32,000 bases of DNA from Nitrosopumilus sp. GTDB lineage: Archaea > Thermoproteota > Nitrososphaeria > Nitrososphaerales > Nitrosopumilaceae. The notes under the pieces are model-generated. The model worked only from the letters and a program-made list of their open reading frames with translations. It had not been told where the DNA came from and searched no databases. The stretch lies in assembly GCF_025699125.1 (NCBI RefSeq), contig NZ_JAILWC010000001.1, forward strand, positions 134,884-166,883. Reading direction: 5' to 3'. This document shows positions 1 to 21,612 of the stretch, piece by piece. How positions within the stretch are numbered: the stretch's first letter is position 1; each line of letters begins with the position of its first letter. The translations under genes and the position numbers were made by a program.

Positions 1-1
1 T

Positions 2-3000
2 CAGGATGCACTCACAGGGTCTGAAAGAATATCGGATCCTATTTTATTAAAAAAATTAGATGATGGAATTTTTTGGGGAAATCAAAGATTCTCTATTGGT
101 CTGTGGATAGGAAATAAAATCACGCCAAAAACATTTTCATGTGGATACAAACGATCTACAAACAAGGTTCTGCTTAATTGTGAGGGTGCACTATTGCCAC
201 AATGGCATGAAAAACGTAAAAGATCTGAATCTGCAGGAGATCCTGATCAAGTACAGAATTGTCCTGTATGTAAAAATATTTTATGTGTCCCAAAAGACCA
301 AAAAATCAATCAAAAGTTTACAAAAATTACTTGGATAGTTCGATTATCAAAAACTAAAGACATTCTAGAAAAATTGCCTCAAGAATTATTTGAAGATAAT
401 TCAATTATTCTTGATACGAAACCACTCTTTGAAATTGTTTCACATCCATCTGACAATGAATACTATTACAGATTAACTATGGATATTAAACCTAAAAAAA
501 ACACTCAATCACTTGATAGGAGTTTAATTGATAGATGGTGGATAGGTTGTGTAAAAAACCAATTAGTTACAGCTGATGAGGATGACCCACTTCAATCTAC
601 TGCTCCATCCATGCCTGGTTACTTTTTTCTTAAGTATGGTGAAAAACGATATGATTTTGCAATGTTTTGTACAAATAAAGATTGTGAACTAAATCAAGTT
701 GAATGGTTTGAAAAACTTGAAAATAAATTCAATGCGTCAATACCTCCAGCTTTTCAAATTAAAAATTCTAGATATCTCTCAACATCCGTGCCAATTTCTG
801 CTTTTTTGTATGATGATATAGTTTACTCCAAATGTCCTAGCTTTTTAATTACAACAGTTGATAAATTTGCAAACCTCCCTTTTGAACCTAAATGCTCATC
901 CATTTTTGGAAATGTGAATGTTGTCCATCCTGTTTTTGGATACGGGCGAAGAAGCACCATTGAATCCCCCCTTTTGAAAAATGGCGTTAGATCTCAAATC
1001 CCTCCACAAGAACTTCAAGATGTTCCTGGATTTAATCCACCTTCGTTGATTTTACAAGATGAATTGCATCTTATCGAAGGCCCGTTGGGAAGTATGATGG
1101 GAATTTATGAAATGGCAGTAGATGTACTTTCTAACAATGGATTAAAACCAAAATATATTGCATCTAGTGCGACTATCAAAGAAGCTGAAAGTCAGGTTGG
1201 AACCATCTTTAGAAAAAAGGTTTCAATTTTTCCCAGTCCTGGAATTGATTCTTTTGATAACTATTTCTCTAAAATTGAAGAAGACCCATCATGTATTGAT
1301 GAAAAACCTGGAAGACTTTATCTTGGTATGCTAAGTGGAAAAACTGCCGTATATCTTCCAATTCAATCACAGTCAATTATAATGGCTGAAATTTTTAAGA
1401 TGAGAAAACATCCTGAATTCTATGATTTAACTGCTAAAGAAAGGGCAGATATAATTAAAGAAACAGATCCCTATTGGACTTTTGTTTCTTATTTTACTGA
1501 TTTGTCATTACTGTCAAAATTTACAAATTATTATTCAGAAAATATTGTGCCAAATGTCAAAAAATTCAGTTCTATTAAAATTCTGAACTCTTTAACACGA
1601 GTGAATAATCAATCTTTTCCTGAAGGATTAAGGCTTTTCCCTGTTGTTTCAGATAAAGAAATGTCTGTTGAAACTGTGAGTGTTTTTTGTACAAATTCTC
1701 CTGGCAGAATTAGAATTGCTCTTTATGAAGACGGATCTCCAATTGGTAAACCCATAGTTACATCTGACTACAAAGAATGTATTGTTGGTGAAAATAATTT
1801 CAATTTTGACAACAAGCTAAACTATGAAATAAAAAATAATCAAAAGATATGGATCTCAGTTATTAATGATAATTCGTCCACCGAATTTGAATCTGTAAAT
1901 TCACAATTAGATTCATTTGAAATAACTCCTTTACATATTCCTGACGAGTTTCCAGATTCTTTTCAAAATCTTTCTAAACTGCAAAAAAATTCTATTAAAA
2001 TCAGTCTCAATTCAACATCACGCTTTCTAAGTTATGAAAAAAATATTCAATTGTCTAGTGAAACTGATGCGCAAGACCTTGTAAAACATTTAGGTGAATT
2101 ACAAGAATCTTCCAACATTGATTCACTTCAAACTTCTCCTGTATTTGGAACTGGTATTGATGTAACTAGACTTGGTATAATACAAATCATGAATCAGCCA
2201 AAAACAAATTCAGGATATATTCAATCTTCGGGACGTGTAGGCAGGACTAATTTTGGTCTTGTATTAACCTGGTTACGCGCAGGTCGTGCAAGAGATCTTA
2301 ATCATTATGAAAACTTTATTGGATATCATAGAATGATACATAAATTTGTAGAACCCATCACCGCATCTCCATTTTCAGATGAAGCTATGGAGTTATGTCT
2401 TGGCCCGATAATTGTTGCAATTTTAAGAAATGCGCGTAATGTGAATGGAATTCCTGTTAGTAGCAAGTGGGTAACATCAGATGGGCCAGATCGTATGAGA
2501 GATCATAATAATGATGATGATGTCAAGGAAATTCGTAAAACACTAATCAAAATTTCACAATCTGATGAAATTGCGCCTTTTAGGAAAATGTATGAGGAAC
2601 AATTTGCAACTCATTTTGATGAATCTAAAGCACGTTGGCATAGATTAGCAACAGAATTACACAATGAAGGAAAAGAATTTGTTTATCAGGAAAGAATCCC
2701 AAACTCTATTCCTGAAAAATGCGTAGTTCTCGGAACTCCTGGTCATAAAGTTATTGATCTGCCTCATGCCTTTGAAAATGCTTCCAATTCACTTAGGCAA
2801 ACAGAGCCTGCTGCAACCTTTTTTGGTGGGCTAGATATAACTACCGAGATCCGTCCTTCACAATTCATTACACGTTATGGACCTGGCACTTTACTGTCTG
2901 GAAAATATCATACTTTTGTAGTCCCTTCTATTCAAAGCCTGGTTGGAAATTTGAATGGCAAAGGTAATTTTGCTGATGATAATTTACAAGGTATTTCAGG

Positions 3001-4918
3001 ATTGTACAAGTATGAAGTCAATGATTCTAGGATGAGACGAATGTTACTTAGGACTAACACGGATATTAATTGGCGAAAATTGAAACTTTTTTCTTTACCT
3101 ACAAACACCTCCCTGATAATTCCAGCAACGGAAAAAGTTTATCGCTGTGATGCTTTTCCAAAGTGGGTGTATTGCACAAATAAGATTCATGACAATGTAA
3201 AGATTCTGGCTGAGCTTAACTTTGATGATGGGACATATGTAAAATGTCCTGAGTGTCAAAGATTATCAGTTGATAATAATGAAAAAAGTAAAAATTATGC
3301 TGCATCAACACTTGTAATTGCTTGTTCTGAAGGCCATCTGGATGACGTAAATTGGCCTTTTGAGGTTCATCGTGAGAATGGAACTCAATGTAATGGAAAA
3401 GTATTTTCAGTTATCTCTTCTGGTGATAATGACAATGCCGTAATTCGATGCATGGGTTATTGGAATGGTGGCACATTTGTTCAGAGTACTTGTAATTCAT
3501 CTGTGGACAATTTAGCACTTAAGGGAAGATCTGGTACCGGGCAAATCGCTTGTACTGCAAAAATTGCAGAAACCAATCGTGAAGATCGACACGGTTGTAC
3601 AAGGAATGGAAACATGTCTAAAGCAAAATTGACCAACAAAACACAGATGAGTATTAGAATGCCTCTTGTTGCAACCTCGATGGAAATTAAGCCACAAAAA
3701 TCACAATTGTTCAACACTTTACAACCGCTTGCAGGAGCAATCACCCAATTTGTAAAAACCTATCTGAAATACGAACATCCGGAAAAACAAACTGTTACTC
3801 AAGAAGATTTTGTGAGAATTTTGCGAGATGAACAAAAGGATCATAAAGAAATTACTTCAGAATTGATTCGAAAAACAGAAAATGTGCGAGAAGATGTATT
3901 TACAGATGTTGTCCATCAAATCATACAGTTTAGCGCAAAACCAGAAACCCCTCTTGAATTATTATCCGAAAAAAAATCTTTTGAAGAGGAATTAAGCAGT
4001 TTAGAAACTCTAACACGTGAAAATGGGCCTAATGTATCGATCACTCCGGGAACCATTTCTACTAGAAAACGATTTCCAATCAAATTCACCACTACTTGGA
4101 ATCTGTCCTTCGAATCTATGCCCTTTGAAGGTGTGAACGTAACTCAAGTACAAACAGGATACAGTAGGGAAATATCTCCTCCTAGACCTCCTGGAATTAA
4201 TGACGATAGAAATTCCGACATAAGAATTGGGAAAATAATTTCAGATACTGAAATTTACAAGGATGAAAATGATTCACGATGGTATCTTGCAAATCAATTA
4301 CGTGGAGAAGGAATTTTCATACATTTGAATCCGCAAGTGCACAAGGACGCGATGGATATTTTTGAAAAATCAAACGATGATTATGCTGTATGGAAAAAAA
4401 TTCATCAAGAAACATTAGAAAAAAATAATATTGAAATTAAACGATTAAAAAATGAAGAACATAAAGAGCAAGACATAGATGCGCTAGAACGTCAGAATCT
4501 GCAAACAAATCCTCTTTTTGTTTGGTGGCATTCATTTGCACATGAATTTATTAATCAGCTTTCAATTGATTCTGGATTTTCAGGAGTTTCTCTAGGAGAG
4601 CGTATTTACTGTGTAAAAAAGCCTGATGACACATTTACTGCGGGAATATTCATTTATGCTTCAAGTCCTGGTACTGATGGGACTCTTGGGGGTCTAACAA
4701 GTTTAGTTGATGAGAGAATTCTTCCAGTTATTGTAAACAAAACCCTACGTAAAATAACCTCATGTTCAAATGATCCGATATGCTCTGCATCAAAAATTAA
4801 CAATCACAAAAGAACCGGTGCAGCATGTCATATCTGCTTGATGAATTCCGAAACTTCTTGTGCCTATCTTAACAAATTTCTCGATCGAAATTTAGTTCGA
4901 GGCACTTTAAATGGATAA
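2..4918 (+). CDS. 5'-partial giant SF2 DExH helicase fused to a Cys-rich DUF1998 module (DISARM DrmA-DrmB-like fusion)
   Basis: Frame 2 is open from nt 2 with no stop before the first ATG at 194, so the gene is cut by the window edge and helicase motif I lies upstream. Motif II is DELH (1058-1069), in the context 'PPSLILQDELHLIEGPLGS'. Motif III is SAT (1166-1174). Motifs V/VI are 'TSPVFGTGIDVTRLG...QPKTNSGYIQSSGRVGR' (motif VI at 2222-2245). From about 2845 ('IRPSQFITRYGPGT') there is a Cys/His-rich region ('KCPECQ', 'ACSEGHLDDVNWPFEVH'). It ends in a DUF1998/MrfA-type signature, 'WWHSFAHEFINQ...SPGTDGTLGGL...SCSNDPIC...GAACHICL...SC' (4523-4865). Confidence 0.7.
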   Translation, partial: QDALTGSERISDPILLKKLDDGIFWGNQRFSIGLWIGNKITPKTFSCGYKRSTNKVLLNCEGALLPQWHEKRKRSESAGDPDQVQNCPVCKNILCVPKDQKINQKFTKITWIVRLSKTKDILEKLPQELFEDNSIILDTKPLFEIVSHPSDNEYYYRLTMDIKPKKNTQSLDRSLIDRWWIGCVKNQLVTADEDDPLQSTAPSMPGYFFLKYGEKRYDFAMFCTNKDCELNQVEWFEKLENKFNASIPPAFQIKNSRYLSTSVPISAFLYDDIVYSKCPSFLITTVDKFANLPFEPKCSSIFGNVNVVHPVFGYGRRSTIESPLLKNGVRSQIPPQELQDVPGFNPPSLILQDELHLIEGPLGSMMGIYEMAVDVLSNNGLKPKYIASSATIKEAESQVGTIFRKKVSIFPSPGIDSFDNYFSKIEEDPSCIDEKPGRLYLGMLSGKTAVYLPIQSQSIIMAEIFKMRKHPEFYDLTAKERADIIKETDPYWTFVSYFTDLSLLSKFTNYYSENIVPNVKKFSSIKILNSLTRVNNQSFPEGLRLFPVVSDKEMSVETVSVFCTNSPGRIRIALYEDGSPIGKPIVTSDYKECIVGENNFNFDNKLNYEIKNNQKIWISVINDNSSTEFESVNSQLDSFEITPLHIPDEFPDSFQNLSKLQKNSIKISLNSTSRFLSYEKNIQLSSETDAQDLVKHLGELQESSNIDSLQTSPVFGTGIDVTRLGIIQIMNQPKTNSGYIQSSGRVGRTNFGLVLTWLRAGRARDLNHYENFIGYHRMIHKFVEPITASPFSDEAMELCLGPIIVAILRNARNVNGIPVSSKWVTSDGPDRMRDHNNDDDVKEIRKTLIKISQSDEIAPFRKMYEEQFATHFDESKARWHRLATELHNEGKEFVYQERIPNSIPEKCVVLGTPGHKVIDLPHAFENASNSLRQTEPAATFFGGLDITTEIRPSQFITRYGPGTLLSGKYHTFVVPSIQSLVGNLNGKGNFADDNLQGISGLYKYEVNDSRMRRMLLRTNTDINWRKLKLFSLPTNTSLIIPATEKVYRCDAFPKWVYCTNKIHDNVKILAELNFDDGTYVKCPECQRLSVDNNEKSKNYAASTLVIACSEGHLDDVNWPFEVHRENGTQCNGKVFSVISSGDNDNAVIRCMGYWNGGTFVQSTCNSSVDNLALKGRSGTGQIACTAKIAETNREDRHGCTRNGNMSKAKLTNKTQMSIRMPLVATSMEIKPQKSQLFNTLQPLAGAITQFVKTYLKYEHPEKQTVTQEDFVRILRDEQKDHKEITSELIRKTENVREDVFTDVVHQIIQFSAKPETPLELLSEKKSFEEELSSLETLTRENGPNVSITPGTISTRKRFPIKFTTTWNLSFESMPFEGVNVTQVQTGYSREISPPRPPGINDDRNSDIRIGKIISDTEIYKDENDSRWYLANQLRGEGIFIHLNPQVHKDAMDIFEKSNDDYAVWKKIHQETLEKNNIEIKRLKNEEHKEQDIDALERQNLQTNPLFVWWHSFAHEFINQLSIDSGFSGVSLGERIYCVKKPDDTFTAGIFIYASSPGTDGTLGGLTSLVDERILPVIVNKTLRKITSCSNDPICSASKINNHKRTGAACHICLMNSETSCAYLNKFLDRNLVRGTLNG

Positions 4919-5456
4919 TTACTCTATTGGAGATGTCCAAGCCATTGGCGCATCAGGTAAAGTATGGATGGGATTCCATGCTGTAGATATTGCTGATCTC
5001 CTGTTTGGCGAATTAGAAAAAGCTGATTCTTCCATACAAATTTCATCCTTTTCTACAGGACATGACAGTAGTGAGATGCGTCATTTTTTTAATTTACTTG
5101 AAAAAAAACTTGGTGACCCTACCATGAAAATTAATATGATTATTAATGATGATGGAAAAAACAATACTGTTACTTCATTTGCTAGAAAAAAAATTCAAGA
5201 ATTGGAATGTGATAAACCAGAACAGTTTTTTCCACAATTTTTTAAGCAGACAAAAATTAATAATCTAAATAAAATTTTGCATGCAAAACTCATTGTAATT
5301 GATGGAACAACTGCATTAATTGGGTCTGCAAATATTTCAAAGGGTGCATTGGAGTCAAATTATGAAATAATGCTAAAAATAAAAGGAAATGTTGCTGTTG
5401 ATCTTTCACGAATGCTTTCAAAACTATCTGAGGAAATTAGGAAAGAAAATGCATGA
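4911..5456 (+). CDS. Single-HKD phospholipase D-family nuclease (Nuc/DrmC-like)
   Basis: The canonical HxK(x)4D(x)6GSxN motif 'LHAKLIVIDGTTALIGSANIS' lies at 5280-5333. The 181-aa size fits Nuc-like enzymes that dimerise. The start overlaps the upstream stop by 8 nt (ATGGATAA). Confidence 0.75.
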   Translation: MDNYSIGDVQAIGASGKVWMGFHAVDIADLLFGELEKADSSIQISSFSTGHDSSEMRHFFNLLEKKLGDPTMKINMIINDDGKNNTVTSFARKKIQELECDKPEQFFPQFFKQTKINNLNKILHAKLIVIDGTTALIGSANISKGALESNYEIMLKIKGNVAVDLSRMLSKLSEEIRKENA

Positions 5457-6943
5457 GTGAGAGAAAATACAATCCTGAAAATGCCGAATTTAACCAGAAA
5501 CAAGACTTTGATTTTACTTTATTTGATAAATTACTCCCAAACTTTGATTTTCGTTACAAAAAAAATCTAATGACACGTATGATTGAAGATTGTACATCGA
5601 TTCAAGCAAGAATTGAAAGATTATCGTTTAAGATATCTTCTAAAAATAGAGATGATTCAAACCTCCTGAGATTTTTTACGATAAGAAATGTACAAGGGGA
5701 TGCAAGTTATTTTAAAATAAAATTTCCAATGCCAATCATTCATCACATCCATCCGGCATTCAAACATCTTCATAAAAAAATTGGCAATGCATACTATCCA
5801 GGAGTTGAAGAATTCATGCCGTGTTATTTATTAAATTTTAACCACGTATCTCTTTCCAAGATAGGGCTAAATTCTATTAATGACTCAACCATTGATTCCA
5901 TTGGAAATGGTATCTATACTAAATTCAGTCATGAAAATAGTGGAAAATATGCCCAATTTTCATCCACAAATATTTTACGACTAGGTGGCAGTCACGAAAA
6001 TATTCTTGAAGGAAAAGAAATCATCGATTGTTGCTTTGAATATGCTTATTGGAATTTACCTGCCCCACATAACACGACGTCACCCACAATTAATAATTTA
6101 ATTTATCACTCAAGTAGTAAAATTTATGAAAATAATGTTTTGGAATTGAATAAAACTTTAATTAAAATTATAAAAATTAGAAGAAAATCTGAATCATTAA
6201 CAATTTTGAAAACACAGAATATTAAATGCATGTATGCAGATGTTGTAATACTTGTAGATGACGGAAATAATATTTCTTCAGAAAAACGCACAGTACTCCT
6301 AATTGAGAGTCTTGCAAATTTATTTAAAGATGGTGAAATGTTCACTGGATTACTTTTAAGACAAAGTTTTTCTCAGCCATACTATTCAATAATTATTGGA
6401 AGCGTTGGTAAAAAAATAGAGTCAAATGACTTAACATATTTAATTAGTATTGTAATGCAAAAAAGACTTCAATTCTTGGAAGAGAATTCCAGTATCACAT
6501 ATGTGGATAAAATAAGTAGACTTTCTGTTGATGTTTCGGAAATTATTAAAAATAATTCTTCTGAAGATGGTATTTTCAATTCTTCCTTTAAATCAATTAG
6601 TGATTTTGAAAACAATATGGAAAAATCAATTGAAAAATTATTTCCAATATACATAAATTATGATGGGGCAATTCATCAATTATCCTCAACAATTATTTCT
6701 TTTCTTTTAATTTATGATCCAGAAATTTTACAAAATAAAAATGCACTAATTACAATTATAAAAATCCTTGATTTGATAAGTGTTAATTCAAAAGAATGGG
6801 GCGAATCTGCACAATCACAATTAAAAATATCAAATAATGCATCTGATCATCTTACTTCAACTACGATGAATCTTCTTATTGAAAATTTACCAATTTTAGT
6901 CAATATGATGATGTATTCAAGAATTTTTTCACAGAATTATTGA
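5453..6943 (+). CDS. Hypothetical protein, 496 aa, no recognisable domain
   Basis: A 496-codon open frame in very AT-rich DNA, where stop codons should be frequent. It shares a 4-nt ATGA overlap with the PLD gene stop. It has a His-rich patch 'HHIHPAFKHLHKK'. I recognise no Walker, nuclease or methyltransferase motif. Confidence 0.65.
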   Translation: MSERKYNPENAEFNQKQDFDFTLFDKLLPNFDFRYKKNLMTRMIEDCTSIQARIERLSFKISSKNRDDSNLLRFFTIRNVQGDASYFKIKFPMPIIHHIHPAFKHLHKKIGNAYYPGVEEFMPCYLLNFNHVSLSKIGLNSINDSTIDSIGNGIYTKFSHENSGKYAQFSSTNILRLGGSHENILEGKEIIDCCFEYAYWNLPAPHNTTSPTINNLIYHSSSKIYENNVLELNKTLIKIIKIRRKSESLTILKTQNIKCMYADVVILVDDGNNISSEKRTVLLIESLANLFKDGEMFTGLLLRQSFSQPYYSIIIGSVGKKIESNDLTYLISIVMQKRLQFLEENSSITYVDKISRLSVDVSEIIKNNSSEDGIFNSSFKSISDFENNMEKSIEKLFPIYINYDGAIHQLSSTIISFLLIYDPEILQNKNALITIIKILDLISVNSKEWGESAQSQLKISNNASDHLTSTTMNLLIENLPILVNMMMYSRIFSQNY

Positions 6944-6952
6944 GATTTGAGC

Positions 6953-6960
6953 GGGGTGAT
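6953..6960 (+). promoter_or_regulatory. Shine-Dalgarno-like GGGGTGAT, 5 nt upstream of the TTG start of the Cas4-like gene
   Basis: It matches GAGGTGAT, the complement of the archaeal 16S 3' end, at 7 of 8 positions. It sits in the 22-nt gap between operon genes 3 and 4. Confidence 0.4.
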
Positions 6961-6965
6961 ATTTT

Positions 6966-7703
6966 TTGATTAAAGTCAACAAAGAAAACGACATTGCTTT
7001 CTTGACTGCATCGGTTACTGATTTTGCAGATTCGTTAGGATACTGTAACTACAAAATACCACTATACATTCAAGGAGTCAAGCCAAAACCTTCGGCATCC
7101 CTAATTCTAGGCACGAAAGCCCACCATGAAGAGGAAAAATATGAACAAGAACTTGCAGAGTTAGAGCCAGTATCATTTGAGCAAATCGAAGACAAGCAAA
7201 AAAACATCGAGTTTGCAAGAGAGAACATCTATTCTTCGCTGAGTATCCCATTTGAATTTCCTTCCGAGAATGTTTTGGTTTCACTATCTGGTAGAATTGA
7301 CAAAATTCTGCGAATTGACGAAACACTGGTTATTCAAGATGACAAGTTTACAGGACGGCCCCAAACATACGATGCTAAAACGCAACCATACCCAAGTCAA
7401 TTATTGCAAGTTTTAGCATATCTAAATTCCAATTACTCTGCAAAGAGAACCAGGAATCCTGAAGATTTTTTTGAAATGCCTCACACCCAAAAGAAATGGC
7501 AGATTAGAATCTGTGACAGCAAGACCAGAAAGCCATACAAAGTGTTCTCTGATTTTCAAGACTCTTTTTCTTTGCATTACTTGCATTCCTCATTGGAAAA
7601 ATTTGCAGCGATATCTCTTGGAATTGCACCTCCGGAACACCACAACAACGTAAACAAGTGTAATGCGTGTAATTTAAAATCATTCTGCTCTTACAAGATT
7701 TAA
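6966..7703 (+). CDS. Cas4-like / RecB-family PD-(D/E)xK exonuclease with a 4-Cys Fe-S cluster signature (DUF83-like)
   Basis: An N-terminal Cys sits in 'LTASVTDFADSLGYCNYKIPLY'. Other matches are 'GTKAHH', the 'GRIDKI' motif (7290-) followed by 'VIQDDKFTG' (7335-7346), and the QxxxY motif 'QLLQVLAY'. The C-terminal CxxCxxxxxC 'CNACNLKSFC' lies at 7659-7688. The start is TTG and is preceded by an SD-like element. Confidence 0.65.
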   Translation: MIKVNKENDIAFLTASVTDFADSLGYCNYKIPLYIQGVKPKPSASLILGTKAHHEEEKYEQELAELEPVSFEQIEDKQKNIEFARENIYSSLSIPFEFPSENVLVSLSGRIDKILRIDETLVIQDDKFTGRPQTYDAKTQPYPSQLLQVLAYLNSNYSAKRTRNPEDFFEMPHTQKKWQIRICDSKTRKPYKVFSDFQDSFSLHYLHSSLEKFAAISLGIAPPEHHNNVNKCNACNLKSFCSYKI

Positions 7704-7720: not shown

Positions 7721-8143
7721 TCATTTTGTTATTACTATGTCTATTCCTTCTTCATCTTTATCATAAACGATCTTTTTTATAGATTTTATCTCATATACTA
7801 AATGATCATAATCTCTTTTGATCAATCCCAAGCCGTCATTTTCTCCCTCGGAGTCCATCTTTTCAGGAAGAACATCCAGAACTATCTTCAATAAATTATC
7901 AAGATCTTTTTTTATTCTGCCTTCTGGTTGTGGGTTTTGATCCTTACTTCCGTCGTATAGGAAAAACCGTACGTCTATAGATAACTCTTCATCATGACAA
8001 AATTTTCTGATTTCATCTAAATTTTTTGTTTGTTTTTTGATTTCTTCTCTGAGTTTTGTTTTTCTCTCAACTGCAAAACTTGATGCTGTAAGTGGCTCAA
8101 AATTTCGGATTCTGATGGTGTGGGATTTTTTCCTAAAAAACAT
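7721..8143 (-). CDS. RusA-family Holliday-junction resolvase-like endonuclease
   Basis: 'KKDLDNLLKIVLDVL' matches the RusA core (E. coli 'RRDLDNLQKAAFDAL'), which carries the DxD catalytic pair. A third acidic position lies in 'RDYDHLV'. The size (140 aa) and the C-terminal 'EGIDIVITK' strand fit the family. Confidence 0.5.
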   Translation of the reverse strand: MFFRKKSHTIRIRNFEPLTASSFAVERKTKLREEIKKQTKNLDEIRKFCHDEELSIDVRFFLYDGSKDQNPQPEGRIKKDLDNLLKIVLDVLPEKMDSEGENDGLGLIKRDYDHLVYEIKSIKKIVYDKDEEGIDIVITK

Positions 8144-8252: not shown

Positions 8253-9656
8253 ATGACCAGCCTTACTTTCTATGGAGGAGTAAATGAAATTGGCGGAAAC
8301 AAAATTCTGCTCCAAGATAAAGACACCAAAGTATTCCTAGATTTCGGTAAAAGCTTCAGCCGTAGAGCGTCATATTTTGAGGAGTATCTCAATCCCAGAA
8401 CATCAAACGGGATAGTTGATTTTCTAACAATGGGGCTAGTCCCAAACATCAAAGGTGCATACAGAGATGACTTGATGACAATGGCAGGAAGAAAACCAGA
8501 AGAGCCTGATATTGATGCGGTGTTGCTTACCCATGCACACGCAGATCATGCAGATTACATTTCATTTTTGCATGAGGATATACCAGTCCATATGGGGGCT
8601 GGATGTCATCTTATTCTCAAAGCATTGGCAGAACGGGCACAAAGAAATATTGAAAAAGAAATTCTTGATTACAAGCCAAGACCGTATAACGCAAAAGATG
8701 AACCGATTACAAGAAAAATCAATGAGTTCAGAACTGGAGATAAATTCAAGATTGGCTCATTAGAGGTAGAACCGATTCACGTGGATCATTCTGTTCCCAG
8801 TGCATATGGATTCATCATTTACACATCTGAAGGCCCTATTGCATATACTGGTGACATACGATTACACGGAACACATCCAGAGATGACTCAGGACTTTATT
8901 GAAAAAGCAAAGGAAGTCAAACCAATTGCATTGATTTCTGAAGGAACGAGAATTTCAGACAAAGAAACACAAGAATCAGAGAAAAAAGTATACGAGGAAT
9001 CCAAAAAAACAGTTTCTGAAACCAGCAATCTGGTATTTGCAGATTTTAACTTCAAAGACGTAGACAGACTAATGACATTTTTCAATATCGCAAAAGAAAC
9101 TGGAAGAAAGTTTGTAGTAAAAATGAACGATGCGTTCTTTTTGAAGCATCTGTCTCAAGACAAGCACCTTAATGTGCCAAACATTGATGACGAGGACATT
9201 ATCATCTATTTGCCAAAGAGAGGATCTGGCCAATATTCAGACAAAGATTACAAAGGGAAGGATCGAGAATTTCTGGACATGCACAACACGTGGACTGCCG
9301 AGCAGATTGCTCAGAGACCTGACAAGGTACTTTGCGCTATTGGGTTTTACAGCTTTACAGCACTGATTGACATGCAACTAAAGTCAGGTGCACGATACAT
9401 CCATTCTTCTTCTGAGCCTTACAATGAGGAACAAAAGTTATCAAAAGAACGTCTAGACGCGTGGATCAATCATTTTGGCATGCATAAATTCCAGAGTCAT
9501 TGCTCAGGACATGCAAGAGGACAAGACCTGCTTGATGCAGTTAAAGAAATTGGAGCAAAGATGCTTTATCCTGTTCATACCGAGCACCCAGATGCATACA
9601 AGAAAGTTGCAAAGAATATGACAATAGTTGAAGAGGGGAGACGATATGATCTTTGA
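8253..9656 (+). CDS. rnj: RNase J-like metallo-beta-lactamase / beta-CASP ribonuclease
   Basis: The N-terminus is 'LTFYGGVNEIGGNKILLQDKDTKVFLDFG'. It has the HxHxDH motif 'THAHADHADY', 'IHVDHSVPSAYG', 'YTGDIRL', and beta-CASP/C-terminal motifs 'HCSGHARGQDL' and 'YPVHTEHP'. Confidence 0.75.
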   Translation: MTSLTFYGGVNEIGGNKILLQDKDTKVFLDFGKSFSRRASYFEEYLNPRTSNGIVDFLTMGLVPNIKGAYRDDLMTMAGRKPEEPDIDAVLLTHAHADHADYISFLHEDIPVHMGAGCHLILKALAERAQRNIEKEILDYKPRPYNAKDEPITRKINEFRTGDKFKIGSLEVEPIHVDHSVPSAYGFIIYTSEGPIAYTGDIRLHGTHPEMTQDFIEKAKEVKPIALISEGTRISDKETQESEKKVYEESKKTVSETSNLVFADFNFKDVDRLMTFFNIAKETGRKFVVKMNDAFFLKHLSQDKHLNVPNIDDEDIIIYLPKRGSGQYSDKDYKGKDREFLDMHNTWTAEQIAQRPDKVLCAIGFYSFTALIDMQLKSGARYIHSSSEPYNEEQKLSKERLDAWINHFGMHKFQSHCSGHARGQDLLDAVKEIGAKMLYPVHTEHPDAYKKVAKNMTIVEEGRRYDL

Positions 9657-10379
9657 GGTTCATAACAAACACACTTTATCCAAAGCCAACGAATCCCTCA
9701 ATAAAAGAATTGACTAAACAATTTCCAATAAGATAACTAATGGGCAGATTTTAGGCATTACTTTTTCGAAAGTTTCTTCACTTAATCGTTAATTTTGAAC
9801 ATATTAGAAGATTAATGGATTTTTTAAAACAAATCATATCATCGTTTCTCTTAAAACAGAAAACAAAAAAGTCATTTTTAGAAGGAATTCAAACTTTACA
9901 ATATTCTACTAGAGAAAATTATCAATCAGCACTAAACAAATTTGAAATATTCTGTAATCACCAATACAATCAAAGAACAAGTAATGAAATTATTTAAGAG
10001 ATAAAGACATTTTCAATGGAGGAACGCAATGACTATTTTTTAAAGAACTAAGACAGGATTTGATACTTTGAAAATAATCTGAATGCATTAATCGTACATT
10101 TTATGATGTTTTAAAATATTTTCAAGACTAGTACGACAAAAAACCCAATCTTAGTTGGGTGGAAAATGAAATGCAGCCAACCTGCCAAGAGGGAGATCAA
10201 ATAAAAGGCACCATTTAGTGCATGAAGGGATATTTTGAGCCTAAAGTATCGATTGTATAGATACTCATGTTTCCCAATACCATTTGATTGATCCATGAAT
10301 CAAGTTGAAACTCTGATAGCTAACAGTCAGATTATTACTCTAGGAAAATATCATACAACACAGAGGGGAAAAATTAGAC

Positions 10380-11477
10380 ATGAATGAAGATCCAGTAAAA
10401 AGCATGATTGCAGAATTGGGTGCTCATCTTTCACAAAAAGAGCATTCAGATATAGTTCTAAACAATGGGAATGGTAAGCAGTTTCTCATTGCACCCTCAG
10501 AGTTTGTTGAAATAAAACCCATTGATTCACCTCGCAAGATTGCATTTGTAGATGGAGGGGACGGCCCACTAGAAGAGTCACCAAACTTTTTAATCACAAT
10601 TAATCGGGTATACTTTTCATTGTTCCAGGGCAAAAAGAGAATAAAACCAAAAGCGAATCCTCGAGTCCAGTTTTTCTCGTGTGTAACATCAAACATTCAA
10701 ACCGTTAACGGTAAAAAAATAGTCAGTTACGATACAAAACTATTCCCTCACACTACTGAAGATAAAAAATATCTCCCAGTAGAGTCTGATCTGACTTCAA
10801 ACACTGAAAGCGCCACGGTACTACAAGGTTCAAGATTGAATTCATTGGGCAGACGATTTGCTGAATGGCAATTGGCAATTCATGTAGTGGAATCAGAACT
10901 AGAAAAAGGAGACATGCTAGTTATGGACGGCTCTCTGCAGACCAGTTTCAAAAACGAGATAAAGTATGCAAACAAACTGTACGATTTGGCAATTAGTAAG
11001 GGAGTGATCGTGTGTGGTTTGGCAAAGACAAGTCGATTAATCACAGAGTCTGGCCATCCATTATTAGCGCGAGTTGCAGAGATTGCAGAAGATGTTCCAT
11101 TTGGAAAATGGCATGTCAAGGTAGCTGAAGAGATATCCTCTGATGACAGAGGTTTCATGCTTGCTGTAAAGTTTCATGAAAAATCAAGATACGTGTTTAG
11201 ATTTGAGATACTGCGAGAACAGTTTTCTTTAATGACTCCTGATGAATTAAATTCAGTTCTTGGCAGTTTGGTTGAGAATTCTCAGGATGTAGCCATGATT
11301 GGTTATCCATATGGGGCAATTGATGCAGACAGATTTGCTCAAGTCAGGCGTGATGAACTGGGAATGTATCAAGGGTTCATTCTATCTGAGAAGCTTCGAG
11401 ATCCCATTTGGAAGAGACTGCAAAAATATTCTGCCAGCTTGTCTGCACATGACACACTAAACGGAGTGACCAGCTGA
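10380..11477 (+). CDS. nurA: NurA 5'-3' nuclease
   Basis: It has the acidic motifs 'IAFVDGG' and 'LVMDGSL'. It is the first gene of the nurA-herA-mre11-rad50 cluster, and its stop overlaps the herA ATG (TGATG). Confidence 0.75.
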
Positions 11478-13060
11478 TGGATGAGATTTCCATAGTAGGT
11501 CAGGTAGTAGGAGGAAGCTTTGGAGATATTGTAATTCGCCAAAAATCCGGAACCAACCTGGAGATTGGGGATTTGATGGTCTCTGAAGAGAACGGTTCAT
11601 TTTTGATTTTGCAGGTGTTTGCATTGGAGTATGGCTCTCAAATACAAGACAAGATGCAGCAGATGATGTCCGGTGTTAATTTGGAGCAGGGAATAGTTGA
11701 TGCAAATTTCTATGAACCAGAATTTGTAAACTATGTTCTAGCTAGAATCAAACCACTAGCACGAGTGTACAAAGAAAATAATGACGTAAAGATTCCAAAA
11801 TCATTACCTTCGTTTTTTAACAAGTTACGATTAATTAGCAAAGATGATTTAAAATTTCTGCAAAAGGAGAAAGACTCTATCTTTGTAGGATATATCAGAA
11901 GTGGAAGCAAAATAATTAAGGAAGCCGAAGTTTGGTTGCCAGCAGAAGATGTGTTTTCGCATCACGTGTTAATTCCTGCAACTACAGGCCGTGGAAAATC
12001 AAATTTGGTAAAAACAATTCTCTGGCATGTGCTAGATACAAACAAGGTTGGCGCGTTGGTGTTAGATGCACATGACGAATACTTTGGGAGAAACGGAGTA
12101 GGACTCAAGGACCATCCAAGGGCCAAAGAGAACATGGTGTATTATACTCCGTCAAATCCACCAGTCGGCGCAAACAGATTGACAATCAATTTGCAATCAA
12201 TCAGGCCGGAGCACTTTGAGGGAATTGTAGATTTTTCTGATCCTCAATTCCAGGCAATCAGAACTGCACACAGACAGCACAGGGCAAACTGGATTCGGGA
12301 ATTGATGATTACCAATGTTGCATCAATTGAGAACAGTGGGGACACAAGACGACAGGGAGAGTTTGCAGTTGGTACGATGATGGTGGTTCAGCGCAAATTA
12401 CGCCTGATTTTGAGCCTAGAAGTAGATGAAGAGCAGGTAATCGTATCAAGACACGAGGTCTTTGACAGTACGACAAAGGGACTCAACACAGTAGATGATA
12501 TCGTACGAGACATAGAGCAAGGCAAAGTCGTAGTTTTGGATACGTCACGATTAGGGGATGAGGCAGAGTTGTTGGTCGGAAACATCATTGCATCCAAACT
12601 ATTGCAGAAATACAAGGATGCCAAAGCTTCAGGAGAACTAGATAGAAAGCCGGTAGCTACCATAGTCATTGAAGAAGCACCACGTGTCATCGGTGTGGAT
12701 GTGTTGACATCAAGAAATGACAACATCTATTCCACCATAGCCAAAGAAGGACGCAAGTTCAAAGTCGGACTAACTGCAATTACACAATTGAGCAGTGTCA
12801 TTCCAAAAACAATTCTAGCTAACATGAATACAAAGATAATTTTGGGAAACGAGATGAAGCAGGAAAGAGAGGCAATCATAGCTTCTGCCTCCCAGGATTT
12901 ATCCGAAGATGACAAAAACATTGCAAGCTTGGATAAAGGCGAGGCAATCATTACCAGTATATTTGTGCCATTTGCAATGCCAATCAAAGTTCCTTTGTTT
13001 GAGGATATAGTGAAAAACAGAAAAAGTACAGCAAGCACTGGCAAAACAAAGGTGTTTTAG
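11477..13060 (+). CDS. herA: HerA hexameric DNA translocase/helicase
   Basis: Walker A is '[10 protein letters not shown]' and Walker B is 'TIVIEEAPR'. The N-terminal HAS-barrel-like sequence is '[15 protein letters not shown]'. Operon context supports the call. Confidence 0.85.
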
Positions 13061-13062
13061 TT

Positions 13063-14319
13063 TTGTTATTTGCGCATTTGTCTGATATTCACCTAGGTTT
13101 TCAAAAACACGAATCATTGCAAAAGATAGAGCAACATGTATTTGAAAAAATAATGGATGAATGCATTTCTCGCAAAGTAGATTTTATTTTAATCCCAGGA
13201 GATTTGTTTCATGTAAACATTCCAGAGATGAGAGTTCAGAAATTTGCATTTAAAAAATTTCGTGAAGTGTATGATGCAGGAATTCCAATATACGTAGTTT
13301 ATGGGAGTCATGATTTTTCACCAGTGTCTAACTCGGTAATTGATCTGCTATCTGAAATAGGATACATTACCAAAGTGACCAGAGCAACAAGCAATGAGAA
13401 TGATACCATATCTTTGGATTTTTTAATTGATGAGAAGACTGGCGCCAAAATTGCAGGACTGTCCGGACTCAAAGTAGGAAAGGACAGGGAATGGTATGAG
13501 AAACTAGACAGGGGTTCTTTGGAGGCAGAATCGGGCTTTAAGATATTCCTGTTTCACGGGGGAGTCTCTGAAATGAAGGCTGATTCAGGCATGGATGGGG
13601 ACCATATGCCGCTTTCTTTACTGCCCAAGGGATTCTCATATTATGCAGGAGGACACATGCACAAATGGAATCACCAATCATTTGAGGGATATCCTAATGT
13701 CGTATATCCTGGAACTCCTTTTGCAGGGTACCATGCAGATCTGGAAGATAATGCAAATGGGCAAAGACGCGGATTTGCCCTAGTAGAGTTTGATGATGTA
13801 GTAAAGTCTGTCGAGTTTGTAGAGATTCAAAACACATCGTATGAAATCATTGAAGTTAATGCGGATAACAGAAAAGCTGATTCCATCAATCAGGAACTGG
13901 TAGAGAAAACAAAAGACATTGATCCTGCAAACAAGGTTGTAATTATTAAGGTCAGAGGAGAGTTGACTTCAGGCAAGACTGCGGACGTAGATATTTCTAC
14001 AATCAGAGATAGTTTGAATGAACGCAATGCAATGGTAGTTAATGTAAGCAAGAACGGACTAACATCAAAGGAATATTCCATTACAGAAGCAAAGGGGAAT
14101 AACAAAGAAGAGATTGAGACGAACGTATTTTCAGAAAACATCGGGCAATTACGTTTTGATCATGCAGAGTTGTTAGGTGATAATGGAATCAAACTTGCAA
14201 AAAAGTTACTGCAAGAATTGGGACAGCCCATCTTAGTCAATGAAAAGAAAAACGAGTACGTTCCAAGGATTCGCAACAACGCCCTGGCAATTTTAGGATT
14301 AGATAAAGATGATTCTTAA
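13063..14319 (+). CDS. mre11: Mre11 DNA double-strand-break repair nuclease
   Basis: Phosphoesterase motifs are present: 'HLSDIHLG', 'PGDLFH', 'GSHD' and 'GGHMH'. The start is TTG, 2 nt after the herA stop. Confidence 0.85.
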   Translation: MLFAHLSDIHLGFQKHESLQKIEQHVFEKIMDECISRKVDFILIPGDLFHVNIPEMRVQKFAFKKFREVYDAGIPIYVVYGSHDFSPVSNSVIDLLSEIGYITKVTRATSNENDTISLDFLIDEKTGAKIAGLSGLKVGKDREWYEKLDRGSLEAESGFKIFLFHGGVSEMKADSGMDGDHMPLSLLPKGFSYYAGGHMHKWNHQSFEGYPNVVYPGTPFAGYHADLEDNANGQRRGFALVEFDDVVKSVEFVEIQNTSYEIIEVNADNRKADSINQELVEKTKDIDPANKVVIIKVRGELTSGKTADVDISTIRDSLNERNAMVVNVSKNGLTSKEYSITEAKGNNKEEIETNVFSENIGQLRFDHAELLGDNGIKLAKKLLQELGQPILVNEKKNEYVPRIRNNALAILGLDKDDS

Positions 14320-16729
14320 TAGTATCATTATTGATAACATTCGAAGTTACGAACACGAAGAAGTAGAGTTTCCTCGCGGAATATCTCTGTTTGAAGGAGA
14401 TATCGGTTCAGGAAAATCAACAGTACTCATGTCAATTGAATTTGCATTGTTTGGTTTAGGATCTCAGAAAGCAGAGGCACTGCTTTCAAAAAAATATGAT
14501 TCAGGATCAGTGATTTTGGATTTTTCAGTTGATGGTGAAAGATATGAAATCAAAAGAACCTTGATGAGAAAGAAATCAGCCATTAACCAGGATCCAAAAA
14601 ATTCCTGGATAAAGATTGCAGGTGAGAAAGAACTGCTATCACCATCGGAACTAAAACAGCGAGTGCTGCAGATTTTAAAATTCAACGAGCCTGCAGACCC
14701 CAAGGCTGAGAGCAAAATCTTCAGATATGCCATATTTACGCCCCAGGAAGCCATGAAGGAGGTGCTTTTTGACTCTGCAAAAAGACTGGAGACAATTCGC
14801 AAAGCATTTGGAATTGAAGATTACAGCATCGCGCATTCCAATGCACGTGAAGTGCTTTCTGAGATAAGGACCAAAGCTGCAGTTTTGCAGGTAAAATTCA
14901 GCGACATTTCTGAATTGGAATCCCAGATTAACGAATCAAAGAAAATGATTTCTGAAATCAATGAAGAGATGTCTAAAAAACAAAAAGAATCAAAGAATCT
15001 CCAATCACAAGAAGAAAAGAACAATGATGAACTGAGAAAACTGCGAGCTAAAAACAATGAGAAGATAAAACTTGAATCAAGAAAAGAAAACCTGGAAGAA
15101 AAGATCGAATCTGGAAAAGAACGAATTGAGAACATAGAGAAGGACTTTGAATCATTTGAGATTGAATTAAGAAACAACAATGAAAAGATGGAGAAATTAA
15201 TTGAGATAAAAAAGCCAGACACTACAAAGAGCATTACTCAATTAACAACAGAGATTAAAAAATTCCAGGAAACAAACAACGAATTGATCAAACTAGAATC
15301 TGAGAAAGATAGCATTACATCAGACATTACAAGACTGAAAGAGAATTTAGGGGACAAGATAGACTCTGATAAAGAATCCATTCAAAACACATTAGACGAT
15401 CTAGTTCAAGAAAAAGAATCATTAGAAAAATTTGCTGAGGAGATTAAAGAAAAACTGGACAAAGTAAAAGACAGCAGAGTTCAAAAGGAAACCCTAAAGA
15501 ATTCATTAGAGAAAGAAATTGAAACATTTACAGCATTGGGAAATGCATGCCCGACTTGCAAGCAAGAGATTACTGATTTACACCATCACAATCTAGTTGA
15601 TGAAAAGAAGAAAGAAGTAGATGCATTAACTCTAGAATTGAAATCAATTACTGATTCTTTTTTTGAATCAAACTCAAAATCCAAAGAGATTCAAACAAAG
15701 ATAGAATCGTATGAAAAAGAGATTCAACAAATACAGAGAACCATTCCAGGAATTGAAGAATACCACAGGAAAACAACACTGATATCGCAAATTGAGGCTA
15801 AAATTAATAGATTAAAAGAGAGTTTCTCAGAGTTTGAAGGAAATAATCCCGTAGAATACCTAACAGAAGTCAAAGACAGCCTGACTATCTACGAGAATGC
15901 AACGGAGCAAATGAAACAGATAGTGGAGGCAAAACAAAAAGTCGAGAAACTAATTTCAAATTATCAAAGAGAAATAGAATTAACTGAATCGCAAATTACT
16001 CAAAGGGAGTCAGAACTAAAAGAAATTCAATTGGAACTAGAATCATTTGGGAATTTAGACAAGGAAATCTCTGGCAAAGAAGAAGAACTGGGTTCGCTTC
16101 GAAATGAGATTTCAAGAATTTCAAATACCATTGCGGCATCTCAAGAGAAATCAAACAATGAATCCCAAAAAATCGAGCAAAACAAACTCAAAATAAACGA
16201 ATCCAAAAAATGGGAAGTAAGATACAAGAAATTTGTCCAGTTCCAGGAATGGTTAGAGGTGTTTTTCATTCCAACAATATCTCAGATTGAAAAGCAGGTG
16301 TTACTATCCATATTGCAAAATTTCAACGAGACATATTCCAGATGGTACTCCATTCTGGTTGAAGATCCTACCAAAGAATCACGAATTGATGAGAACTTTA
16401 CACCGATTGTAAATCAGGACGGATATGATCAAGAAGTGGGATTTTTGTCAGGCGGGGAAAAGACAAGCATTGCATTGGCATACAGGTTGACTCTGAATTC
16501 CCTGATGAGGAAAGAGACAGAGTCCATGAAATCCAACTTGTTGATTTTAGACGAGCCCACAGATGGGTTTTCCAAGAATCAGTTGGGAAAGGTAAGAGAG
16601 GTATTAGATGAGCTCAAATCAGAGCAGATAGTGCTTGTTTCCCACGAAAAAGAACTTGAGGGGTATGTAGATAACATTTTTCAGATTTCAAAAAGCGATG
16701 GAATATCAAAGATTGTAAGAATGAACTAG
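14309..16729 (+). CDS. rad50: Rad50 ATPase
   Basis: Walker A is 'GDIGSGKST'. Long coiled coils flank the CxxC zinc hook 'CPTC' (15548-15559). The ABC signature is 'LSGGEKT' and Walker B is 'LLILDEPTDG'. It overlaps mre11 by 11 nt. Confidence 0.9.
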   Translation: MILNSIIIDNIRSYEHEEVEFPRGISLFEGDIGSGKSTVLMSIEFALFGLGSQKAEALLSKKYDSGSVILDFSVDGERYEIKRTLMRKKSAINQDPKNSWIKIAGEKELLSPSELKQRVLQILKFNEPADPKAESKIFRYAIFTPQEAMKEVLFDSAKRLETIRKAFGIEDYSIAHSNAREVLSEIRTKAAVLQVKFSDISELESQINESKKMISEINEEMSKKQKESKNLQSQEEKNNDELRKLRAKNNEKIKLESRKENLEEKIESGKERIENIEKDFESFEIELRNNNEKMEKLIEIKKPDTTKSITQLTTEIKKFQETNNELIKLESEKDSITSDITRLKENLGDKIDSDKESIQNTLDDLVQEKESLEKFAEEIKEKLDKVKDSRVQKETLKNSLEKEIETFTALGNACPTCKQEITDLHHHNLVDEKKKEVDALTLELKSITDSFFESNSKSKEIQTKIESYEKEIQQIQRTIPGIEEYHRKTTLISQIEAKINRLKESFSEFEGNNPVEYLTEVKDSLTIYENATEQMKQIVEAKQKVEKLISNYQREIELTESQITQRESELKEIQLELESFGNLDKEISGKEEELGSLRNEISRISNTIAASQEKSNNESQKIEQNKLKINESKKWEVRYKKFVQFQEWLEVFFIPTISQIEKQVLLSILQNFNETYSRWYSILVEDPTKESRIDENFTPIVNQDGYDQEVGFLSGGEKTSIALAYRLTLNSLMRKETESMKSNLLILDEPTDGFSKNQLGKVREVLDELKSEQIVLVSHEKELEGYVDNIFQISKSDGISKIVRMN

Positions 16730-18626: not shown

Positions 18627-19360
18627 ATCAAAAACTCTGCAGCATTTTTTCCATCTTCTGTAATGTTAATCCATCTAGTTCGTCCGATCTTTTCTACTTT
18701 GATAAACTTCCACTGGTTCTCCAATGTATTGATGATGTTTTTATCTAAACTTGCAAATGTTGCCTGACTTTGATTTTCCGCATTGACCACAATCAGTTTT
18801 TCTTCTTTGGCAAGGCGAGCCATCTCTTTTTTAGAAATCCTGCCGCCCTTTTCTGAGATAATTCTTAATGCATCAATGTGTTTTTTGTCTGGCCTTTTGA
18901 TTTCATAGGTTGGAACGTCTTGAATATCTTTTATCCCGGTAGATATTGCTTTGCCTGAAAAGACAAGATAGTCTTTTGCCTCTACATAAAATGGATGAAT
19001 GTTTTTTTCATCATTGAACATCATGCATGCCATCATGCATGCAATTGCTTGAATTTTACTTCCTGCCGCCAAATTAACATAAATGATGTTTCCTTTTTCT
19101 TTTTCAATAATTTCTTTTACAGATTTGATTATCTTGAAGAGGTCGAGTCTGTCATGATACTCCCTAACTACTTCGATGTTTTGTTTTTGTAATTGTTTTG
19201 ATATTTTTTCATAAAACGTGATTGCCTTGTCAATACTAGGATTTTCATGAACTAGTAGGCAGACCTTGTCTGCTTTCATCTTCTTTGCAGGCAAGACGAT
19301 TCTGTCAATTTCATAGCCTACAGGAGCAATATGCACACGCAAGTTTGTCAGTTTAGCCAT
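18623..19360 (-). CDS. Putative regulator with an N-terminal Rossmann/CARF-like domain (Csa3/HFX_2341-like) and a C-terminal winged helix
   Basis: From the second Met, the sequence is 'MAKLTNLRVHIAPVGYEIDRIVLPAKKMKADKVCLLV', followed by 'VNLAAGSKIQAI'. The C-terminal wHTH-like part is 'IDALRIISEKGGRISKKEMARLA...GRTRWINITEDG'. I prefer the start at 19360. The longer track ORF (to 19417) would translate through the TATA-like box at 19394-19408. Confidence 0.45.
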   Translation of the reverse strand: MAKLTNLRVHIAPVGYEIDRIVLPAKKMKADKVCLLVHENPSIDKAITFYEKISKQLQKQNIEVVREYHDRLDLFKIIKSVKEIIEKEKGNIIYVNLAAGSKIQAIACMMACMMFNDEKNIHPFYVEAKDYLVFSGKAISTGIKDIQDVPTYEIKRPDKKHIDALRIISEKGGRISKKEMARLAKEEKLIVVNAENQSQATFASLDKNIINTLENQWKFIKVEKIGRTRWINITEDGKNAAEFLI

Positions 19361-19393
19361 GATAGTATCTACAGTATGCATACTATGGTCATG

Positions 19394-19408
19394 ATATATA
19401 ATAATTTT
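19394..19408 (-). promoter_or_regulatory. TATA-like box (AAAATTATTATATAT on the minus strand) about 38 nt upstream of the ATG at 19360
   Basis: The A/T box has spacing compatible with a short-leader archaeal promoter. It lies inside the 5' extension of the track ORF. Confidence 0.3.
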
Positions 19409-20501: not shown

Positions 20502-20711
20502 CGTTGTACTCCTTTTTTGGTATGCATTTGTTCCTAGTTAGGAGCAAAAACGGTGATGTTGCTGTCATTGTAATGCACCTATCTCGTGGAACCCTACTGA
20601 CAAATCCGGATTCCAACACTCCCAATACAGAATCCCTGGTAGTATGTGTGATATTTATGGTCATTAACAGAATAACGGTCACTATAAATATATACATTTA
20701 ACACCTAATAT

Positions 20712-21545: not shown

Positions 21546-21612
21546 TTTTTAATAATCATTAGTGTTAATCGAATATGGATCAGACTAGATTTTAATTACT
21601 GTGTGGTCATTG

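Follow-up and report, generated by a model that had tools for sequence, protein, structure and literature searches.

A candidate DISARM-type defence cassette of Nitrosopumilus-like archaea with a fused DrmA-DrmB helicase and a private third protein

Which defence system, if any, is formed by the four genes that open a 32,000-nucleotide (nt) stretch of Nitrosopumilus sp. DNA (contig NZ_JAILWC010000001.1, positions 134,884 to 166,883; hereafter the window)? Four open reading frames (ORFs), all co-oriented, occupy window positions 1-7703. They encode a helicase, a PLD-family nuclease, an orphan protein of 496 amino acids (aa) and a Cas4-like nuclease. The original prediction treated them as one tightly packed, DISARM-like operon without a methyltransferase, and the packing is indeed seen in the ORF calls. 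The ATG codon of gene 2 sits 8 nt inside gene 1, genes 2 and 3 overlap by ATGA, and genes 3 and 4 are separated by a 22-nt gap containing GGGGTGAT; gene 4 starts with TTG. The products of genes 3 and 4 have counterparts with 100% identity among the NCBI proteins of Nitrosopumilus sp. We compared the window with 16 distinct related loci of the Nitrosopumilus type (denoted by L and a number), whose genes were mapped by tblastn and ORF calls. Judging from gene sequences and gene order, nt 1-6943 probably belong to a DISARM-type antiviral cassette, a class-2-like variant found only in Nitrosopumilus-like archaea, and cover its downstream part.

The first gene (1..4918, plus strand) encodes a YprA-family helicase with fused DrmA and DrmB parts (DrmAB). 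Its frame is open from nt 2 without an upstream stop, so the 5' end is cut by the window edge. The window copy, the 3' three-quarters of the gene, corresponds to residues ~558-2196 of a protein of ~2196 aa, the first ~1.67 kb (~557 residues) lying before nt 1; the L022 protein shares 94% identity with it over residues 558-2196. It matches the PADLOC DrmA profile PDLC02571 (E 7.9e-177, profile positions 530-1016 of 1282); full-length relatives match positions 2-1015 of 1282 with E 1.5e-292, and match DrmB too. Residues 948-1635 of the window copy match the PADLOC DrmB profile PDLC02583 almost from end to end (E 3.4e-105, positions 5-604 of 606), which places the DrmB-equivalent OB-CON-DUF1998 region at 2843..4906 on the plus strand. 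Within it, the Zn-binding MZB/DUF1998 domain of Pfam (residues 1512-1613, nt ~4535-4840, plus strand) scores 28 bits against a cut-off of 24.2, and the NCBIfam DrmB_fam model scores 298 bits on the L022 protein, above its cut-off of 240. Helicase motifs II (DELH, nt ~1058), III (SAT, nt ~1166) and VI (QSSGRVGR, nt ~2222) lie within the window; the Walker A motif GGGKT, at about residue 491 of the full-length protein, lies outside it. The predicted fusion of helicase and DUF1998 is thus confirmed by a single open frame with both DrmA and DrmB matches. DrmA and DrmB form one uninterrupted reading frame here, not the separate genes of the DISARM core.

The family of fused helicases comprises about 100 clusters of proteins of 2100-2250 aa with 33-94% identity, and all inspected contexts are thaumarchaeal. 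The nearest unfused DrmA proteins come from Chloroflexi, Alphaproteobacteria and Nitrosopumilus. Three of the unfused relatives (P0105, P0124 and P0128) carry a precomputed PF01878 (EVE) domain. EVE is a reader of modified bases, and its presence on these proteins may bear on the sensing of DNA modification by DISARM helicases.

The second gene (4911..5456, plus strand) encodes DrmC, a short PLD-family nuclease of 181 aa. It matches PLDc_2 of Pfam (1.3e-15, residues 34-162) and the PADLOC DrmC profile PDLC02614 (1.8e-18), and its HxKxxxxD...GSxN (HKD) motif is intact: HAKLIVIDGTTALIGSAN. DrmC directly follows DrmAB in all 16 loci. To judge by its 181-aa length, the window protein is without the N-terminal four-helix bundle of typical DrmC. 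The profile matches together with the intact HKD motif establish that the DISARM core of DrmA, DrmB and DrmC, named in the original prediction, is present; its domain assignments (DrmA helicase, DUF1998, PLD, Cas4-like) are all backed by profile searches.

The third gene (5453..6943, plus strand) encodes the 496-aa orphan, which completes the invariant part of the cassette and whose small family is confined to these loci. It always follows DrmC, mostly with an ATGA overlap. Profile searches gave no Pfam, PADLOC, NCBIfam or PDB-sequence match, and its description as an orphan holds also at the level of significant fold matches. Homologs form 26 clusters in an index of 5.8 billion proteins; in a set of 1.84 billion, 75 representative clusters belong to the family. 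A pattern scan of 185,579 species-representative genomes found the orphan in two, both chromosomes of Nitrosopumilus assembled from metagenomes; this count is a lower bound, as the scan patterns were derived from one subclade. The proteins of 476 and 477 aa at the same position in L018 and L019 are orphan homologs (hmmsearch 1.4e-157 and 4.5e-95). The AlphaFold2 (AF2) model (predicted local distance difference test, pLDDT, 70; predicted template modelling score, pTM, 0.76) has a helical N-terminal hairpin, a beta-rich middle part and a helical C-terminal domain. Foldseek comparison of this model with PDB and BFVD yielded nothing at E <= 0.001, only weak recurring matches of the OB-fold/SSB type (Stn1, RPA, LEF-3). 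These are compatible with binding of single-stranded DNA (ssDNA) by the modelled protein but are no evidence for it, and any such role is speculative. A mad2-like region is present in P0323, one distant match of the orphan.

In every related locus where the contig allows it (43-94% DrmAB identity), DrmAB, DrmC and the orphan adjoin each other in fixed order, mostly with overlapping stop and start codons. This includes the most distant loci, L018 and L019, where DrmAB is 54% and 43% identical to that of the window. Identities to the window co-vary across 11 loci, with r = 0.97 for DrmAB versus the orphan and r = 0.95 for DrmAB versus DrmC. The flanks behave differently. Between L016 and L013, the flanking genes for proteins of 409 aa (p409) and 185 aa (p185) and the Cas4-like gene are 95.6%, 93.5% and 99.2% identical, whereas DrmAB, DrmC and the orphan are 60.8%, 70.2% and 58.5% identical. 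Since near-identical flanks carry divergent cassettes in this pair, the clearest case in the pairwise matrices, we conclude from the sequence comparison that the three genes are passed on together and swapped as a block, at a chromosomal site that varies. By the same comparison, the unit is three genes, not four. One locus, L015, holds a deletion remnant at 202-1658, where the p409 homolog directly abuts orphan residues 208-496; the helicase, DrmC and the orphan N-terminus are gone, and the genes further downstream, for a C5 methyltransferase and an Eco47II-type restriction enzyme, have stayed intact.

Does the cassette lack a methyltransferase, as was originally proposed? None was found in the 32-kb window, either by Pfam scans of the larger ORFs or by tblastn with a related C5 methyltransferase. 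However, a pfam00145 C5 methyltransferase gene lies within about 8 kb of the cassette in ten of the eleven informative loci (L022/L005, L016/L017, L013, L021, L018, L019, L008, L009, L011 and L015). The proposed absence is thus probably an artefact of the window edge. The linked methyltransferases match the PADLOC DrmMII profile PDLC02650 with E-values from 3e-99 to 3e-71.

The linkage takes three arrangements. The closest relatives, L022 (94% DrmAB identity) and L016 (88%), have the methyltransferase upstream of the helicase on the opposite strand, beyond what corresponds to window position 1. Just upstream of the helicase are two small co-oriented genes, one of 185 aa with weak PIN-like matches and one of 66-70 aa; further upstream are divergent genes of 409 aa and ~389 aa (the latter with a weak HNH-like C-terminus), the C5 methyltransferase and an EcoO109I-like restriction enzyme. 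The methyltransferase of L013 directly adjoins the 409-aa gene. That of L021, accompanied by Vsr and a restriction-enzyme remnant, is split from the cassette by inserted insertion sequence (IS) elements. Clusters of such elements (IS66, DDE_Tnp_1, DDE_3) lie on both sides of the cassette in this Nitrosopumilus chromosome, at L021 positions 3228-7336 and 19573-25631. The second arrangement is seen in L018 and L019, where the methyltransferase is directly divergent from the helicase; Vsr is also present in L019. Finally, L008, L009, L011 and L015 have it about 300 nt downstream of the orphan, followed by a TdeIII-type enzyme (L008), nothing recognisable (L009), the contig end (L011) or an Eco47II-type enzyme (L015).

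Methyltransferase and restriction enzyme genes lie side by side at 713-2756 in L022, 1585-3740 in L016, 4736-6588 in L008 and 1984-3710 in L015. Three structurally unrelated type II enzyme families (EcoO109I-like, TdeIII, Eco47II) thus stand beside the cassette-linked C5 methyltransferases. EcoO109I, TdeIII and Eco47II recognise sites of the GGNCC type. If this applies here, the nuclease partner would change from locus to locus without a change of methylation specificity. The 185-aa protein, with weak PIN/DUF5615-like matches, and the overlapping 66-70-aa gene occupy 5422-6176 in L022 and have homologs in L016, L006, L013, L020 and L021; the two genes may form a toxin-antitoxin-like or regulatory pair. 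At the same position another subclade (L010) has an HNH-like 126-aa protein and a winged-helix 92-aa protein.

The known system closest to this arrangement is class 2 DISARM of the Bacillus paralicheniformis type, which consists of the core triplet and a pfam00145 methylase, with drmE present merely 'on occasion' (10.1101/2021.12.28.474362). The DrmA helicase, the OB-CON-DUF1998 protein DrmB and the PLD protein DrmC are the same and in identical order, a pfam00145 C5 methyltransferase is linked in most loci related to the window, there is one extra protein without assigned function, and the setting is a defence island beside restriction-modification (R-M) genes. The differences are as follows. 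The window has DrmA and DrmB in a single polypeptide, a DrmC of reduced length without the usual four-helix bundle, and an extra protein that is located 3' of DrmC and has no detectable similarity to DrmE profiles. The methyltransferase of the relatives is outside the operon, is variable in position and orientation, does not co-diverge with the cassette and is mostly paired with a type II restriction enzyme. Finally, the host is an archaeon.

As for class 1 DISARM, neither DrmD (SNF2) nor the N6 methyltransferase DrmMI was found beside the window cassette or within 10 kb of the helicase or orphan of its relatives. The only N6_N4 methyltransferase seen belongs to a separate MvaI/BcnI R-M system about 9 kb downstream in L002. 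The original prediction that no equivalent of DrmD or DrmE is detectable agrees with our PADLOC, NCBIfam and domain scans. Since DrmA and DrmB are one gene and there is no detectable DrmD or DrmE equivalent, the locus is not canonical DISARM. The proposal of a non-canonical DISARM stands in these two respects; the absence of a methyltransferase and the Cas4-like arm are not supported.

DISARM has been described as a branch of the YprA family with DrmA and DrmB consistently split, and many unclassified DISARM-like classes have been reported (Bell et al. 2025, 10.1101/2025.09.15.676423). Fused YprA-type helicases pair with PLD nucleases that have no four-helix bundle (10.1101/2025.09.15.676423). 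The window shares this combination with the 'DISARM-like' clades of Bell et al. 2025, who do not describe the 496-aa partner. The text and three supplementary files of that study (10.1101/2025.09.15.676423) yielded no entry from Nitrosopumilus or any other thaumarchaeon, and a search of the literature revealed no publication on DISARM in Nitrosopumilus. The Dpd helicases (DpdJ/DpdF) and DruE of Druantia are also fused YprA-type helicases with DUF1998 and associated PLD nucleases. However, their profiles give marginal matches only (DpdF, E 0.0076 to 4.5e-4; DruE, E 0.017), and the window cassette has neither 7-deazaguanine biosynthesis genes nor a C-terminal nuclease fusion.

Several observations weigh against a class-2-like DISARM. 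The NCBIfam models DISARM_DrmAL (938 bits on the helicase, just under the cut-off of 999) and DrmC_I (52.5 bits on gene 2, below 133) do not reach their thresholds. No similarity between the orphan and DrmE is demonstrable by profile searches. PADLOC gave no DrmE match for the orphan, its distant homologs or the upstream proteins p409 and p389; NCBIfam gave no family match for any of these, the presence of a DrmE model in NCBIfam being itself unconfirmed. When the orphan was compared by hhalign with a 507-aa protein encoded ahead of DrmA on a Bacillus plasmid, the probability was 1.4%; the plasmid protein is itself not recognised as DrmE, so that little follows from this comparison. As regards methylation, the window's own methyltransferase is presumed from the 94% and 88% identical relatives. 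In L020, a complete chromosome with the cassette, no methyltransferase gene lies closer than 10 kb. The linked methyltransferases match the generic type II profiles of PADLOC about as well as they match DrmMII. The linked methyltransferases belong to at least three lineages that do not co-diverge with the cassette, and many are paired with a genuine type II restriction enzyme, so that they could just be R-M systems that happen to share a defence island with the cassette. Finally, the family is known from genes alone, and the anti-phage or anti-plasmid role of the cassette is a prediction.

Hence one possibility is a self-sufficient three-gene system that senses DNA structure, namely free 5' ends of ssDNA, and not methylation, the nearby R-M systems being independent residents of a shared hotspot. 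The exchange of the three-gene block without its flanks fits such a system, as do the L020 chromosome, the restriction enzymes recognisable beside most methyltransferases and the diversity of the latter; moreover, the methyltransferases of L009 and L011 are 93% identical, while the orphans of these loci are 54% and 48% identical to that of the window. There is also a precedent, as class 1 DISARM provides methylation-independent defence, with a trigger loop that senses DNA structure (PMC9142583; 10.1101/2021.12.28.474362). On the other hand, linkage in ten of eleven loci, in three arrangements, exceeds the expectation for random neighbours. Methyltransferases without a recognised restriction enzyme occur in L009, L018 and L019 (in the last with Vsr), the deletion in L015 removed the helicase and kept the methyltransferase, and in class 2 DISARM loss of the methylase is deleterious (10.1101/2021.12.28.474362). 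We therefore regard a fully methylation-independent system as unlikely. The methyltransferases may act for the cassette, for the restriction enzyme that they accompany, or for both.

The fourth gene (6966..7703, plus strand) was originally seen as a second nuclease arm of the system. It scores 27.9 bits with PDDEXK_1 of Pfam (cut-off 22) and has weak matches to Cas4 profiles (E about 5e-5). Like the Cas4/RecB-family Fe-S nucleases, its product has GRID, DDK and QxxxY motifs and a 1+3 pattern of cysteines, C27...C232-x2-C235-x5-C241; C27, C232, C235, C241, D112, D125-K127 and Q148-Y152 are invariant in 19 homologs. However, TIGR00372 stays far below its cut-off (16.9 bits against 65), the gene stands alone in Nitrosopumilus, no cas genes were seen among its neighbours in other loci, and the 32-kb window yielded neither cas genes nor a CRISPR array nor an Rfam RNA. 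A single-sequence search of PDB sequences gave no meaningful match, and the AF2 model has a pLDDT of 34, the alignment being probably too shallow.

Under the four-gene hypothesis, the system has no methyltransferase and the Cas4-like Fe-S nuclease acts together with DrmAB and DrmC. The gene indeed has the same orientation as the orphan and follows it at a distance of 9-25 nt in the window, L016, L021, L006 and L013, leaving no space for an obvious promoter of its own, and the 32-kb window has no methyltransferase. However, the distribution of the gene is very different from that of the cassette. The same kind of search that found 26 orphan clusters found 370 Cas4-like ones. The best 120 of the 370, which include Ca. 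Nitrosopumilus salaria BD31 and several complete chromosomes of ~2 Mb, are 245-263 aa long (nearly all 245-248 aa) and 76-83% identical to the window copy; at the loci, too, identity is flat at 76-83%, whatever the divergence of the cassette. The gene is present without DISARM genes in L023 (N. salaria BD31) and L025, where its neighbours are a metallo-beta-lactamase (MBL) gene, an HFX_2341 regulator, DUF7220, DUF5615 and small ORFs. Conversely, it is missing beside the cassettes of L020, L018, L019, L008 and L009, so that the order that recurs is DrmAB-DrmC-orphan and not the proposed four genes. In L022/L005 it is set apart from the orphan by two genes, an MBL gene in inverted orientation and a DUF7662 gene, and it lies outside the exchanged block.

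Alignment of the sequences 5' of the Cas4-like start codon in eight loci demonstrates that homology begins essentially at this codon; upstream there is the orphan, DUF7662 or non-coding DNA. The 22-nt gap thus reflects the location of the cassette and not membership in it. Taken with the linked methyltransferases of the relatives, these observations make a four-gene system very improbable, and we rejected it because the Cas4-like gene is widespread, separable and outside the exchanged block. Comparison of the loci identifies the gene as a conserved neighbour that marks the right edge of the variable site, outside the cassette. It is probably co-transcribed by accident of position and belongs to a different, widely conserved gene set. 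The impression of a second nuclease arose from this neighbour, and that of a missing methyltransferase probably from the window edge.

If nt 1-6943 are part of a class-2-like DISARM cassette, it could work as follows. The variable site is bounded on the right by the conserved Cas4-like gene; on the left, beyond the window, the closest relatives have the small genes, the 409-aa gene and the methyltransferase with a restriction enzyme. Published work describes a DrmAB that binds ssDNA with a 5' overhang and has lower ATPase activity on DNA with 5-methylcytosine, and a DrmC that is dispensable (PMC9142583). By analogy with DISARM, the linked C5 methyltransferase would mark host DNA, and the fused DrmAB would load on ssDNA or 5'-overhang DNA of the invader and be stimulated by its unmethylated state. 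DrmC would be an accessory nuclease, perhaps dispensable here too. More speculatively, the 496-aa protein would be an obligatory partner in the position and role of DrmE, and might bind ssDNA via its OB-like beta domain. A bolder version of this scheme makes the orphan a new obligatory DISARM component, an OB-like ssDNA sensor or adaptor that replaces DrmE in archaea, within a self-contained triplet that is exchanged horizontally and works with any C5 methylation of the host or with none. We consider this version tentative, and rather doubtful as a whole. If true, it would be the first defined DISARM-type immunity in ammonia-oxidising archaea.

The genes around the cassettes are variable and of the defence type. 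They include Mrr, SRA-McrA, DndB, the MvaI/BcnI R-M system, IS elements and restriction enzymes of the EcoO109I, TdeIII and Eco47II types. The rarity of the cassette and its variable sites with R-M, Mrr, DndB and IS neighbours support the earlier view of an accessory defence locus, not a housekeeping cluster. Scans of the window and of the related loci revealed no tRNA gene next to the cassette, nor any elsewhere in the window, that could mark an integration site; the sole tRNA gene detected, tRNA-Ser in L018, is about 5.4 kb upstream of the helicase gene.

Downstream of the Cas4-like gene, Pfam scans of the window identified a RusA-like resolvase gene (7721-8143, minus strand), an MBL/beta-CASP gene (8253-9656, plus strand), a complete NurA-HerA-Mre11-Rad50 operon (10380-16729, plus strand) and a winged-helix HFX_2341/CARF-like regulator (18623-19417, minus strand), followed by common genes of metabolism and information processing. 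The adjacent repair-type genes and the fused helicase-DUF1998 architecture of the YprA repair branch suggest a module for housekeeping DNA repair, of the MrfA/YprA type. This reading is hardly credible and was rejected, since the helicase matches DrmA at full length (E 1.5e-292) and DrmB but not the repair-branch models, NurA and HerA adjoin the cassette in the window and in none of the other related loci, and the cassette is rare, variable and elsewhere flanked by R-M, Mrr, DndB and IS elements.

The G+C content of the NurA-HerA-Mre11-Rad50 operon is 0.37-0.43, against about 0.33-0.36 in its flanks, and its G-rich skew is higher too. HerA and Rad50 have moderate matches to the PADLOC profiles mad8 and mad3 and to LmuB. 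A paralogous MBL gene of 494 aa (36-38% identical) recurs beside the Cas4-like gene in many Nitrosopumilus loci, and in L019 a stretch of 44 residues left over from an MBL of the window type (9718-9852) directly adjoins the start of the helicase. Copies of the HFX_2341/CARF-like gene are found in L013 (14870-15658), L016 (18105-18863), L023 (13788-14552) and L025 (10857-11621), where this protein recurs with the Cas4-like gene, MBL, DUF7220, the PIN-like DUF5615 and runs of small ORFs. From this co-occurrence, these genes seem to form a set that is conserved in Nitrosopumilus and lies next to the variable site; it may be an integrated element or the scaffold of a defence hotspot. Further downstream, a minus-strand ORF without a Pfam match (21854-22825) contains a two-copy tandem repeat of 30 nt (22523-22581, 79% match).

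What is known in this locus is the DISARM-type core; what is new is its archaeal form, with a private 496-aa component, a fused helicase and cassette-like exchange. The case also demonstrates that a known system can be mistaken for a non-canonical one when the window cuts it off and a conserved gene happens to lie beside it. The predicted class-2-like cassette offers a compact natural single-chain DrmAB for structural work, and the orphan is a candidate substitute for the poorly understood DrmE. The one genome that has the cassette and no methyltransferase nearby provides a natural test of whether DISARM needs its own methylase. Few microbes of the sea are as abundant as the ammonia-oxidising Nitrosopumilus, whose defences against viruses are poorly known. 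They would have a DISARM-type system in an unusual form, made up of a fused helicase, a PLD nuclease reduced to a minimum and a third protein of their own, that behaves as a swappable cassette at a conserved chromosomal hotspot.

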